Part shown: positions 39,648 through 59,303 of the stretch, one piece after another
Numbering within the stretch: the stretch's first letter is position 1
Layout: each line of letters begins with the position of its first letter
Source: a virus
Virus record (IMG/VR): IMGVR_UViG_3300008116_000011
Coordinates: 64,001 to 128,000 of that record
DNA length: 64,000 nt
Strand: one strand, 5' to 3'
The notes under the pieces: model-generated
Seen by the model: the letters and a program-made list of their open reading frames with translations, nothing else
What the model was told of the DNA's origin: nothing
Databases searched by the model: none
Made by a program: the position numbers and the translations under genes

Positions 39648-39683
39648 AACAATTTTTGTTTGTTTAACAATTTATTTACAATG

Positions 39684-39715
39684 TAAATATATAGACAGTA
39701 AATTGGGTTTCCAAA
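39684..39715 (-). promoter_or_regulatory. Bacteroidota-type promoter for the HTH gene
   Basis: TTTG-N20-TATATTTA. Confidence 0.7.
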
Positions 39716-39719
39716 AGAG

Positions 39720-39791
39720 TTGTTGTACCAAGATTCGAACTTAGTCTTTATGTTCCGGAAACATACGTGCTATCCCTTACACTATACAACA
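39720..39791 (-). tRNA. tRNA-Arg(CCG)
   Basis: Folded by hand: acceptor TGTTGTA/TACAACA, D arm GTGT/GCAC, anticodon arm TATGT-TTCCGGA-ACATA, T arm CTAAG-TTCGAAT-CTTGG, A73, no encoded CCA. Confidence 0.85.
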
Positions 39792-39795
39792 AAGG

Positions 39796-39830
39796 AATAA
39801 AAAAAGGGACTGATTAGGTCCCTTTTTATT
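39796..39830. terminator. bidirectional intrinsic terminator
   Basis: AAAAAGGGAC-N7-GTCCCTTTTT. Confidence 0.75.
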
Positions 39831-39923
39831 GAGTACACCTTTCGGTGGTTTGAACAACTCGCAAAGGGTTCTTTGTATAAGCTCAAACCAGGTTCTTTGT
39901 ATAAGCTCAAACCACGGAGTACT
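39831..39923 (-). ncRNA. candidate structured ncRNA segment
   Basis: AGTAC/GTACT closing stem, 11-bp GTGGTTTGAGC/GTTCAAACCAC stem, CACC-GAAA-GGTG tetraloop. Confidence 0.45.
39867..39914. repeat. perfect 24-bp tandem duplication
   Basis: GGTTCTTTGTATAAGCTCAAACCA x2 with no spacer. Confidence 0.95.
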
Positions 39924-39938
39924 TAAGTTTCCGAAGCT

Positions 39939-40013
39939 TGGAGCCACCAGTCAGGCTTGATCTGACACCTCTCCCGGTCGGAGTGGGAGGCTTCTACATT
40001 GAACTATGGCGGC
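39939..40013 (-). tRNA. atypical tRNA-like RNA (CCG-centred loop, U73, encoded CCA)
   Basis: GCCGCCA/TGGTGGC-T-CCA acceptor; CTCCC-ACTCCGACC-GGGAG anticodon arm; GTCAG-ATCAAGC-CTGAC T arm; no GG in the D loop. Confidence 0.7.
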
Positions 40014-40125
40014 GAGTATCTTTTAAAGGATACTCAAACCTGCCTTGCGACAGTTTATTCGAGTTGTCTGCTCTAGATAGCTATAAAAACCGATTTGGTC
40101 GGTAAGGATTGATCTATCTAGTCCC
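40014..40125 (-). ncRNA. candidate structured ncRNA segment
   Basis: CTAGATAG/CTATCTAG stem enclosing ACCGA/TCGGT, a GACA/TGTC hairpin, and a GAGTATC/GATACTC hairpin; downstream of TATTTATA at 40148-40155. Confidence 0.45.
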
Positions 40126-40162
40126 TTTGTTGTTTGCTTAGTGCGTATATAAATATATAATA

Positions 40163-40522
40163 TTATCCAAAAACAGCTACTCCTACTACAGTTCCTATAG
40201 AAGCACAAATTACAAATACTATTTGGTCTACTCTAGTTCCGTAAGTTACCCTTTGCACATTTAATGCAAATGAAATCCAGAAAAAGAAAGCTACAAAAAA
40301 TAGACCAATATCTGCTTGCATTGTTTCATTAGCCCATCTAGCACTAATATTACTTCTCATAAATGCATGAATAAATGCTGACATAAATGCTACTACAAAT
40401 GTAATAGGATTATAACTATTTACTTTAAGATACTCAGTAAATAATGATTTATTACCTTGTGTTAGTATCTTTTTTGCTTTTGGCTTTTTTCGAGGTTGTA
40501 ATTGATTATTTTCCATATTCAT
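40163..40522 (-). CDS. 3-TM hypothetical membrane protein
   Basis: Hydrophobic segments. Confidence 0.55.
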   Translation of the reverse strand: MNMENNQLQPRKKPKAKKILTQGNKSLFTEYLKVNSYNPITFVVAFMSAFIHAFMRSNISARWANETMQADIGLFFVAFFFWISFALNVQRVTYGTRVDQIVFVICASIGTVVGVAVFG

Positions 40523-57326: not shown

Positions 57327-59303
57327 TTATGGTACTATTTTTCCTTCAGGAATTTCTTTATTTCCATTTGCCGTAAATATATCAGTAAGCCATTTATTTT
57401 CCTTCTCTACTCTATCAACAGTAAATGCGGGGAGATTAGCCCAATCCCCTGGAATATTGCTAAATTTATTTGGAAATTTGCGAGGTAAGAAATCATGCAC
57501 AGGAGTAAATGTCATTTGCACAGTCATTACATGAGGTAATTCATACATATTAACACCAGCACCTCCTTCAGGATCATCTATTGCTATTTCCCAAGGTGAC
57601 TTATCATCTATAGTATAAGTTAAATTTTTAATAATTCCTGGTTGGCGATACATGTAATTACCCATAGTGAGTTTCATATATGGTCCTCTCATATTTATGC
57701 CATCATAATCGGGCATTGTGTTTGAGTATAAATAATTTAACTTTTGCCACATCGGTTTCATTTCAGCTTCAGACATTGCTGCTACTTGAAATGTAAATGA
57801 AACATTTCTTTCAAATCCTTTATAGATATAAAAGGGTTCTCCTCTACCTACATAATTCACAGTATTCCAAGTTGGATTAGGATTATCAGATATACTTGTT
57901 AAATAAGATCTAAATATCATCCATGTACTAAGTCCTGGATTAGTTCCATCAACAGCCTCTATTCTAAATTTAATAAGGTCTCTTACGGTAAAGCTCTTTC
58001 CATTTACATTTATTTTGGTATTTGGAGGAGCACCACTTATATATAAAGGGGTAAGGTTAATTTGATCTTGTCTAGGATATTCTGAGTCTGTAGGATTATA
58101 TCCTAATCGTCTTTCAATATTGAATTGTTCTAATGGTAAACCCTTATCAGCATATGACCCTGTTGTAGGTTTATATTTTGAAAATCCTTTAAATGTAAAT
58201 GTTATAGGCCTATCTAAATAGCCTTGGCGGCTTATAGTGCCAGGACCTACTATATCATTATTTGCTTTAACTATATTAGCTGTTCCTATAGCAAAACTTC
58301 CGGTTTGTTGGTTAATTGCATTTATTAAATTATTATAAAGTTTACCTGCCTCTGGGTAATTTATAGCATTTTGATCAATCTGGGAGGGTTTATGTGTGAG
58401 AGAACCAGTAGTTATATTATTATACTCTAAAATTTGATCTCGATTCCAATCAAAATACTCTTCAGAAACACCTTGTGCTAAAAAATAATCAATATCAGGA
58501 ATAGGACGTCTAAATTTAGAAGCCATATTAGAAAGTGATACAACACGAGCTGTACCTGTGTCTACAAGATTAGCAGTAAACCCAGGAAGGGAAGCATCAA
58601 TAGGTAAAACTCTACGTCCACCACCATATTGATTATATTGTTGATTTCCTAATGTATTATAATATCTTGGTATAGTAGTTCGTCCTATACCATCAATAGA
58701 TCCAGGACCGCTAACATATTGATTAATATTAACAGTAGTATTATTACCTGCTGCTACTAATTTATCTTTTAATAATACTAATCTATTATTAGCTCCATTA
58801 GAACCACGAGCATCATTAGCAACTACTACATTTTTATATAATTGACCTTCATTTAATACCGGTAATAAACCATGTCTAGTAATGTGACCACCAAACGCTG
58901 TAATTGGTACTTGAGCTAATGTATTGATACCTAAATTATAGATACGAGTAGGACCTATTTTACCTAATAGTTGTCCTAAAGCATCTGTTCTAGTTTCAAG
59001 TTGAGGATTTGATAATTGTAATCCTACTTGTTTTGCTATAAATAAAGGTCCACGAGGTGGATCAACAAGAAATTTTCCAATACGGAGAGTATCACGAGCA
59101 GAAGCTAGTGTAGCACCAGCAAAACCACCTCTGATTAAACCATTATCTGAGTTCCATATAGTTGTAGATGGAACTTGTTGTTGGTATGGTGGTGGTATTT
59201 TTGTAGTAATATATGGCTCACCACTACTACCTCCTCCTGGTTGATCATTTCCGTATTTAAGACCTCTTAATGCAGTTAATCCAGCTTGTGTAATTATTGG
59301 CAT
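57327..59303 (-). CDS. baseplate / tail-tube initiator protein (gp48/gp54-like C-terminal domain)
   Basis: W....YVGRGEP.Y.Y.GF.R...F.F, LT.G, PG.I..L. Confidence 0.6.
   Translation of the reverse strand: MPIITQAGLTALRGLKYGNDQPGGGSSGEPYITTKIPPPYQQQVPSTTIWNSDNGLIRGGFAGATLASARDTLRIGKFLVDPPRGPLFIAKQVGLQLSNPQLETRTDALGQLLGKIGPTRIYNLGINTLAQVPITAFGGHITRHGLLPVLNEGQLYKNVVVANDARGSNGANNRLVLLKDKLVAAGNNTTVNINQYVSGPGSIDGIGRTTIPRYYNTLGNQQYNQYGGGRRVLPIDASLPGFTANLVDTGTARVVSLSNMASKFRRPIPDIDYFLAQGVSEEYFDWNRDQILEYNNITTGSLTHKPSQIDQNAINYPEAGKLYNNLINAINQQTGSFAIGTANIVKANNDIVGPGTISRQGYLDRPITFTFKGFSKYKPTTGSYADKGLPLEQFNIERRLGYNPTDSEYPRQDQINLTPLYISGAPPNTKINVNGKSFTVRDLIKFRIEAVDGTNPGLSTWMIFRSYLTSISDNPNPTWNTVNYVGRGEPFYIYKGFERNVSFTFQVAAMSEAEMKPMWQKLNYLYSNTMPDYDGINMRGPYMKLTMGNYMYRQPGIIKNLTYTIDDKSPWEIAIDDPEGGAGVNMYELPHVMTVQMTFTPVHDFLPRKFPNKFSNIPGDWANLPAFTVDRVEKENKWLTDIFTANGNKEIPEGKIVP

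Follow-up and report, generated by a model that had tools for sequence, protein, structure and literature searches.

We report here a structured RNA, encoded on the minus strand of a 64,000-nucleotide (nt) stretch of viral DNA, that is wrapped around a degenerate look-alike of a tRNA-Arg(CCG) and coupled to a canonical tRNA-Arg. This stretch, referred to as the window, comprises bases 64001-128000 of the complete 174,437-bp virus record IMGVR_UViG_3300008116_000011, which has direct terminal repeats. The RNA is real and conserved. A structured leader of ~120 nt is followed by the degenerate tRNA-Arg(CCG)-like cloverleaf, and the trailer of ~145 nt behind it has a terminator-type hairpin at its end; the helices of all three parts are maintained by compensatory change. 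Judged from its sequence, it is a conserved non-coding phage RNA of ~335 nt that belongs to no described family. An earlier note on the window had proposed an undescribed phage non-coding RNA (ncRNA) or a tRNA-containing precursor at this place, and the covarying structure, an enriched promoter motif, 21 homologues and the limitation of Rfam matches to tRNA all bear this proposal out. The description given in that note was largely right on the anatomy of the locus, and wrong on one stem, on the meaning of a repeat and on the self-containment of the unit. With regard to function, we infer, with slightly more confidence than doubt, that the locus represents a tRNA-operon precursor in which the flanking parts serve as a functional scaffold RNA.

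Conservation and covariation of the RNA

Our fold model, which comprises 78 pairs in 13 helices, was scored on an alignment of 21 sequences. In this alignment 97.3% of 1629 cells were paired and 13 pairs showed a change on both sides, values that were matched by none of 500 shuffles, while controls with slid partners gave only 35-48% pairing. Covariation and conservation in relatives, which the earlier note had named among the checks on its proposal, were both found. The changes on both sides were located in hairpins P1a and P5, in the acceptor, anticodon and T stems of the cloverleaf, in helix X, in hairpin H and in the terminator. Moreover, changes on one side only yielded G-U rather than A-C, which points to an RNA made from this strand. 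The minimum free energy (MFE) of the sequence was -106.9 kcal/mol (z = -5.45), and a second folding z-score of -5.15 was obtained.

These data also bear on the idea of an element that acts as DNA rather than RNA, for instance an attP site carrying a piece of a host tRNA, an origin or an operator. Such an element would be in line with the perfect inverted repeats and with a tRNA-like part of 58% G+C in a phage of 32% G+C. However, strand-specific G-U pairs are frequent, compensatory changes occur in a cloverleaf unlike any canonical host tRNA, and a promoter motif and a terminator flank the region. In addition, a search of the genome for an integrase found none, for which reason an attP site was dropped, and we consider a DNA-level element very improbable altogether.

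The 21 sequences are distinct full-length copies, this one included, all of which come from uncultured relatives. They were gathered via contigs (designated by L numbers) encoding relatives of the neighbouring protein, of which 98 with 59-88% identity were found in metagenomes, and by one metagenome pattern scan. In all copies the RNA and then the tRNA-Arg directly follow the gene for the neighbouring protein, and the relatives bear further tRNAs near the locus. Sequence conservation starts exactly at RNA nt 1. Mean pairwise identity over RNA nt 1-65 was 0.93; the cloverleaf had 0.90 and a trailer segment that we call the hub had 0.89, compared to 0.79 in the canonical tRNA-Arg and 0.71 in the upstream gene. 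The conservation of leader and cloverleaf exceeds that of the canonical tRNA and of the neighbouring protein gene.

As the earlier note had stated, the region lacks a credible open reading frame (ORF): no ATG-started ORF of at least 25 amino acids (aa) was present in the RNA region here or in 14 of the 20 homologues, and indels of 1, 22, 24, 31 and 37 nt among the homologues disrupt every reading frame. The raised G+C content described in the note was likewise confirmed, with 0.45-0.50 over 39825-40124 vs 0.27-0.37 in the flanks and 0.32 in the genome.

The RNA is single-copy, as no paralogue was detected when one was looked for in the same genome. An Rfam scan at E-values up to 10 returned nothing but tRNA, the sole matching family, and chance small RNA matches far under threshold. 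A DNA search in distant mode and a search with the neighbouring protein gave no match in the cultured-phage collection, and four DNA patterns together with two protein queries retrieved just two related records from IMG/VR. Eighteen other IMG/VR matches to a 16-mer turned out to be an unrelated coding region, and a 19-mer match in a Polynucleobacter assembly as well as 16-mer matches in L091 and L098 were set aside as chance.

The tRNA-like cloverleaf and the CGG codons

On the minus strand, from position 40160 downwards, the order of elements is the motif TATTTATA, the conserved block, the tRNA-like element, the terminator-type hairpin and the canonical tRNA-Arg(CCG). All features of the RNA unit lie on this strand, as do 204 of the 211 crude gene calls, and the coordinates given below for the unit refer to it.

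The divergent tRNA-Arg(CCG)-like cloverleaf, the tRNA-like element of the earlier note, occupies 39942-40013. It scored 35 bits with the Rfam tRNA model (RF00005; gathering score, 29) and was missed by ARAGORN. Among the 12 relatives scanned, the cloverleaf reached 31-42 bits in eight and stayed under the gathering score in L048, L053, L109 and L111, while the neighbouring tRNAs scored 50-69 bits; ARAGORN called a tRNA-Arg(ccg) in only four relatives. All four arms are kept, with compensatory changes in the acceptor, anticodon and T stems and with one bulged base in the D stem. The anticodon loop YUCCGAM (39977-39983), which has 7 nt, U33 and a purine at position 37, was found in 21 of 21 sequences, and its bases UCCGA are invariant, as is the D arm, while the loop-closing pair 31-39 is A.C in 18 sequences, G-U in two and A-U in one. 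The elbow, on the other hand, is not canonical: the 6-nt D loop AAUGUA contains a single G, and the T loop has A, C, G or U at position 54 and A, C or U at position 58, so that just U55, C56 and R57 are kept. The discriminator is U73, and a CCA following the cloverleaf is not conserved, the relatives having TCCA, TCTA, TCAG or TCAA.

These features could be accommodated by an ordinary two-tRNA operon, in which the cloverleaf would be a second working tRNA-Arg(CCG) that is freed by RNase P and 3' trimming, receives a CCA, is charged and is used on the ribosome, with leader and trailer as spacers that carry processing and stability signals. The anticodon loop U33-C-C-G-A37, invariant in 21 of 21 sequences, the covariation in three cloverleaf stems and the four ARAGORN calls of tRNA-Arg agree with such an operon, a class I tRNA core can apparently be placed (U8, A14, A15-U48, C13-G22-G46 and U12-A23-A9), and the two genes need not be redundant because the anticodon of the canonical neighbour is UCG instead of CCG in three relatives (L036, L109 and L110). 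However, the elbow is degenerate, with a single G in the D loop and freely varying T-loop positions 54 and 58, and both U73 and the absence of a clear A20 differ from the identity elements of bacterial arginyl-tRNA synthetase (ArgRS). Where the cloverleaf was detected at all, its 31-42 bits remained below the 50-69 bits of the neighbouring tRNAs, and 4 of 12 relatives did not attain the Rfam threshold. Furthermore, a conserved hairpin begins at position -1, and spacers would not be expected to outdo a canonical tRNA in conservation. We regard a second working tRNA as unlikely.

A codon count adds to these objections, since a second tRNA-Arg(CCG) would have merely 16 CGG codons to read, out of 51,361 codons in the genome. 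Fourteen of the 16 are found in two giant Thr/Pro/Ser-rich proteins with PSITPT-R-TITPS repeats, which are encoded outside the window and consist of 1731 aa (G000:C1:130079-135271) and 2351 aa (G000:C1:13255-20307), and 13 occupy the Arg position of this repeat, which makes the two proteins the principal users of the phage tRNA-Arg(CCG). Other copies of the repeat have AGA, AGG, CGA or CGT at the Arg position. The codons found opposite CGG in alignments with relatives are CGA, AGA or codons for Lys, which indicates that CGG is read as Arg. Reassignment of CGG by the odd tRNA was dropped for these reasons, as the repeat positions and the alignments of relatives both point to Arg, and a quadruplet or frameshift reading was rejected because the CGG-bearing ORFs stay open in frame 0.

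Alternatively, the RNA could be a tRNA decoy with an anti-defence role. The scaffold would then keep the cloverleaf unprocessed and display its tRNA-Arg(CCG) anticodon arm, thereby soaking up a host factor that recognises this arm, for instance ArgRS, a modification enzyme or an anticodon nuclease, and the real tRNA-Arg next door would replace what the host loses. This role would be in keeping with the established theme of phage tRNAs directed against tRNA-cutting defences, with the invariance of the anticodon loop and the D arm while the elbow decays, with the direction of both tRNA-type genes towards a codon hardly used by the phage, and with the predicted long-range helix (LR, see below), which would enclose the cloverleaf. 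But no nuclease or partner can be named for a host that is uncultured or not known, the embedded state of the cloverleaf is an assumption, and a search of the phage for the tRNA-repair functions RNA ligase, RtcB and CCA enzyme found none encoded; a tRNA-repair context was dropped on the same ground. A decoy role seems improbable to us.

Leader, hub and trailer

RNA nt 1-12 (ACAACAAAGGGA; 40122-40133) are invariant in 21 of 21 sequences and constitute the 5' strand of a proposed terminal helix, P0. They are followed by the P1 domain (40073-40121), in which CUAGAUAG/CUAUCUAG closes an internal loop and hairpin P1a (CCGA/UCGG). P1 was 100% paired and showed one change from A-U to G-U in a single relative, and P1a carried a compensatory change from C-G to U-A in a divergent clade. 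Further downstream, GACAACUCG (40060-40068) provides the 5' strand of the 9-bp helix LR, with CGAGUUGUU at 39853-39861 as its partner. Of the nine LR pairs, eight are invariant and one is G-C instead of G-U in two sequences. LR, a predicted helix that would enclose the cloverleaf, appeared in the RNAalifold consensus as well as in the MFE structure of this sequence.

The leader also contains hairpin P4 (CUGUC-GCAA-GGCAG with a GNRA loop; 40040-40053), whose loop took up two independent and unrelated hairpin insertions of 31 and 37 nt in two clades. With a pairing probability of 0.86, P4 displaces the competing GACA/TGTC stem of the earlier note, for which the probability was ~0.02. The other stems listed there, CTAGATAG/CTATCTAG, ACCGA/TCGGT and GAGTATC/GATACTC, were kept in 21 of 21 sequences, the last two with compensatory changes. 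The latter corresponds to hairpin P5 (GAGUAUC/GAUACUC; 40014-40035), which abuts G1 of the tRNA-like element and which showed a change on both sides in two pairs and a compensated 1-bp insertion in one clade.

In the trailer, the peripheral hairpin H6 (CGGA/UCCG; 39915-39933) was 100% paired where present and is entirely deleted in the L028/L031 clade. The UCCGA of the anticodon loop (39977-39981) is exactly complementary to UCGGA of the H6 5' strand (39929-39933), 8 nt past the cloverleaf, a contact that would not be universal because of this deletion. A perfect 24-nt tandem duplication (39867-39914; Tandem Repeats Finder period 24, 2.0 copies, 100% matches) is private to this genome, with a single copy in 20 of 20 relatives. 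Its second copy carries the conserved GGUUUG, the 5' strand of helix X. The variable hairpin H (here CACC-GAAA-GGUG; 39836-39847) is conserved in position, and its pairing is maintained while its sequence and length are clade-specific. Of an 11-bp stem previously assigned to the 3' domain, only 6-8 bp were conserved.

The 22-nt hub CCCUUUG-CGAGUUGUU-CAAACC (39847-39868) is nearly invariant and shows complementarity to three separate segments upstream of it: RNA nt 5-11, nt 66-74 (forming LR) and the trailer GGUUUG (forming X). Its first 15 nt are invariant, and the other 7 nt bear the changes in X as well as one-base insertions in three relatives. Helix X (GGUUUG/CAAACC) showed a compensatory change from G-C to A-U and also a change from U-A to U-G. 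LR and X cross and are mutually exclusive in nested folding, with mean probabilities of 0.55 vs 0.43, and according to the model they would form either a pseudoknot or two alternative states. Two further pairings were considered: a helix of the 5' CAAAGGG with the hub CCCUUUG (7 bp, both strands invariant) had a probability of 0.00 in nested folding and was neither supported nor excluded, and a CCUUGC/GCAAGG pseudoknot, which needs a G at that position to be perfect, was weakened in both insertion clades.

A cis-acting conformational switch would be another explanation. In such a switch, LR vs X, the pairing of the leader or trailer GGUUUGAG with UUCAAACC, and the pairing of the 5' AAAGGGAC with the 3' arm of the terminator would decide whether the terminator forms and, consequently, the level of tRNA-Arg. 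In favour of it, LR and X differ little in energy and exclude one another in nested folding, the leader GGUUUGAG is invariant, including its unpaired GUUU linker, and the 5' AAAGGGACU seems to match the terminator 3' arm over 9 nt in this genome. However, LR and X can coexist as a pseudoknot, and the terminator stems covary internally while the 5' end is fixed, and the match drops to 3-7 bp in other clades; pairing of the RNA 5' end with the terminator 3' arm was rejected as not conserved between clades. The earlier note had based its switch on three GGTTTGAG copies at 40033-40040, 39906-39913 and 39882-39889. All three are present, but the third is a product of the private 24-nt duplication, by our estimate a repeated 8-mer is expected ~0.8 times by chance in 330 nt, and the sole compensatory change favours the trailer GGUUUGAG, although it still permits the leader copy through a G-U pair. 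A switch among the three copies is not sustained by these findings. As there is in addition no ligand or signal to propose, we judge a cis-acting switch to be quite improbable.

Transcription signals, the proposed helix P0 and the canonical tRNA-Arg

The motif TATTTATA, confirmed on the minus strand at 40148-40155 where the earlier note had seen it, is of the promoter type and lies 14 nt 5' of the conserved RNA start. In the genome it occurs 55 times on the gene strand vs 14 times on the opposite strand. Of the copies on the gene strand, 34 are intergenic, with intergenic sequence making up 7% of the genome, and 32 are followed by a gene start within 120 nt. The motif also precedes the phage tmRNA gene, and a variant was found in all relatives, where the conserved RNA begins 3-14 nt downstream of it. 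Its distribution indicates that TATTTATA behaves as the phage's own promoter signal. The tmRNA gene preceded by the motif is located outside the window (G000:C1:59339-59751). Another TATTTATA at genome position 58067 (G000:C1:~58000-58067), just downstream of a tRNA-Leu and a tRNA-Thr, has no obvious ORF start after it, and the sequence following it may be another ncRNA. A composite of TTTGGAAACC, 13 nt and TATATTTACA was noted past tRNA-Arg at ~39683-39716 (minus strand); the same composite (GTTTGGARACC, ~20 nt, TATTTATA) is found ahead of the tmRNA gene and of a gene at genome position 49411, and it seems to represent a second class of promoter that includes an upstream element, not a terminator hairpin.

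At the other end of the RNA, the terminator claimed earlier was recovered on a consensus scan as the hairpin AAAAAGGGACC-TAATCA-GTCCCTTTTT followed by a U-tract (39799-39827), and four of its pairs were changed on both sides across relatives. The unit extends past position 39831, at which the note had ended it, and neither is it self-contained as had been suggested. The canonical tRNA-Arg(CCG) (39720-39791; called by ARAGORN, 56.4 bits with Rfam), the 3' member of the unit, starts 8 nt past the U-tract, and since these 8 nt hold no TATTTATA of its own, tRNA-Arg most likely depends on read-through. Moreover, RNA nt 1-12 are complementary to UUCCUUUGUUGU (39786-39797), which comprises the last 6 nt before tRNA-Arg together with tRNA-Arg nt 1-6 and represents the 3' strand of P0.

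Of the 12 pairs of P0, nine are invariant, and 97.6% of the cells were paired compared to 54-66% in slid controls. P0 was part of the MFE structure of this sequence, stacked on P1, and in equilibrium folding it was predicted with a probability of ~0.98 in 20 of the 21 full-length sequences, displacing the acceptor stem of tRNA-Arg. As P0 would compete with this stem, release of tRNA-Arg would depend on the opening of P0. The canonical tRNA-Arg cloverleaf itself was 99.8% paired, with nine pairs changed on both sides (four of the five pairs each in the anticodon and T stems) and none of them in the acceptor stem, whose 5' strand was altered in 1 of 21 sequences. In L002 (L002:3693-3764), the canonical tRNA-Arg has C33 in place of the near-universal U33.

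Proposed function

In summary, the mechanism that we favour combines partial termination, a scaffold held by the hub and a P0-gated release of tRNA-Arg. According to this mechanism, the terminator-type hairpin would end part of the transcription and give rise to a stable RNA of ~335 nt as the main product, while a minority of transcripts would read through into tRNA-Arg. The 22-nt hub in the trailer would knit the RNA together via LR with the leader and X with the trailer, as a pseudoknot or in two alternative states. When transcripts read through, pairing of nt 1-12 with the end of the trailer and tRNA-Arg nt 1-6 would form P0 and close the molecule. The cloverleaf would be a built-in tRNA module that acts either as an RNase P handle for cutting the scaffold into defined pieces or as an in-place mimic of a tRNA. 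A bolder and improbable variant of the mechanism is a self-gating device, in which a closed, pseudoknotted scaffold displays an unchargeable tRNA-Arg(CCG) mimic; this mimic would be the decoy for a host factor recognising the anticodon arm. Through strand exchange of its P0 5' end with the acceptor stem, the RNA would also control how the real tRNA-Arg matures.

Several points weigh against the favoured mechanism. A single narrow phage clade is the source of all homologues, and one or two events account for many of the double changes. Since P0, LR and P4 never vary, covariation neither supports nor refutes these helices, and seven P0 pairs may be left over from the duplication of a tRNA-Arg 3' end. 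The asymmetry of the acceptor stem is weak evidence because a frozen 5' strand of U and G tolerates changes on the partner strand only. A 9-bp match between leader and trailer is expected about once by chance if G-U is allowed, as we estimate, and equilibrium folding leaves out the co-transcriptional order, the tertiary structure of the tRNA and proteins.

If the scaffold gates the release of a tRNA or acts as a decoy, it would constitute a new way in which a phage manages a rare-codon tRNA or counters an attack on tRNAs; if it does neither, the RNA is still a well-supported new family suitable for Rfam. In either case, its defined fold, the tRNA look-alike in a fixed place and the mutable complementarity of P0 to the neighbouring tRNA make this RNA of ~335 nt a compact case that is accessible to bench experiments.

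Phage and gene neighbourhood

The terminase TerL of the phage is 60% identical to that of the T4-type Flavobacterium phage immuto, the nearest cultured relative, and the source is a T4-like myophage with probable Flavobacterium hosts. The RNA belongs to a clade whose nearest cultured relatives infect Flavobacterium. The gene for a small DUF1761-like membrane protein is situated 5' of the RNA unit together with queC and queD. In codon 11 of the DUF1761-like gene (window 40163-40522, minus strand), the Arg of an N-terminal motif QP-R-KK is encoded by CGA here and in L101, and by CGG in six relatives (L025, L031, L035, L110, L111 and L112); both codons are rare in these phages. Translation of this gene may depend on the neighbouring tRNA, or the CGG/CGA codon may merely reflect shared ancestry.

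At the matching position in immuto, after queC, a small protein gene and ycfL, an 86-nt 'tRNA-Cys' is annotated (NC_055915.1 20246-20331; L123:1247-1332) that was detected neither by ARAGORN nor by the Rfam tRNA model. It is preceded on its 5' side by ~130 nt of higher G+C with several inverted repeats, and the stretch may be an unrelated instance of the same theme. Likewise, a stretch of ~190 nt between tRNA-Arg and tRNA-Leu in L111 (L111:2051-2240) has a tRNA-type acceptor stem GTCAGG/CCTGAC and a T arm GAAGG-TTCGAAT-CCTTC. It is interrupted by an insertion of ~110 nt and gave no ARAGORN or Rfam call.

Comparison with known systems

In functional tRNA-operon spacers such as 3'ETS-leuZ of Escherichia coli and in RNAs punctuated by RNase P such as MALAT1/mascRNA, the boundaries of adjoining functional RNA pieces in one transcript are fixed by a tRNA or tRNA-like element. 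These systems are either short, weakly structured sponges or eukaryotic, whereas the RNA described here has a large covarying fold tied around the tRNA-like element. A tRNA-like module is also found in the bacterial Y RNAs (YrlA), ncRNAs that occur in phages as well (PMC4201824). YrlA is permuted, with a T arm, a closed acceptor-like stem and a D arm, and its RNA ends form the stem that binds Ro60 (PMC4201824). In contrast, the cloverleaf described here has the normal order of arms and a full anticodon arm. The gene for YrlA adjoins rsr, while the TROVE domain of Ro60 (PF05731) had no match in the 174-kb genome and was matched in control genomes. An identity as a Y RNA was dropped in view of the absence of a Ro60 gene and the wrong topology.

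Large structured phage and prophage RNAs that often lie beside tRNA islands, GOLLD and ROOL, resemble the RNA in setting, and they likewise are still unexplained. Both contain pseudoknots and have no known protein partner, and GOLLD sometimes holds a tRNA in a linker (10.1101/2024.12.08.627333). An adjacent tRNA-Arg and, in relatives, further tRNAs are also found here, but the resemblance is one of setting only: GOLLD and ROOL measure 500-800+ nt vs ~335 nt, their Rfam models had no match here at E-values up to 10, and the formation of multimers has no support here.

The closest analogue is provided by RNAC and RNAD of T4 (species 1 and 2 RNAs), stable ncRNAs in the tRNA region of a T4-type phage and the classic case of stable RNAs from phage tRNA regions that have been without an assigned function for decades. 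They are late RNAs whose role is not known (PMC3014915, PMC9697503). A comparison by sequence only, using nhmmer with filters off on the T4 region, revealed no similarity to rnaC or rnaD. The T4 RNAs, of 119 and 139 nt, have no full cloverleaf, whereas the RNA described here has ~335 nt and contains one, and the T4 order is tRNA-Arg, RNAD and RNAC, whereas here the structured RNA lies ahead of tRNA-Arg. However, tRNA-Arg, rnaD and rnaC abut in T4, RNAC appears to end in a tRNA-type T arm, and here, too, an ncRNA lies beside a tRNA-Arg in the tRNA region of a T4-type phage. By analogy, the arrangement described here would work like that of T4 RNAC and RNAD.

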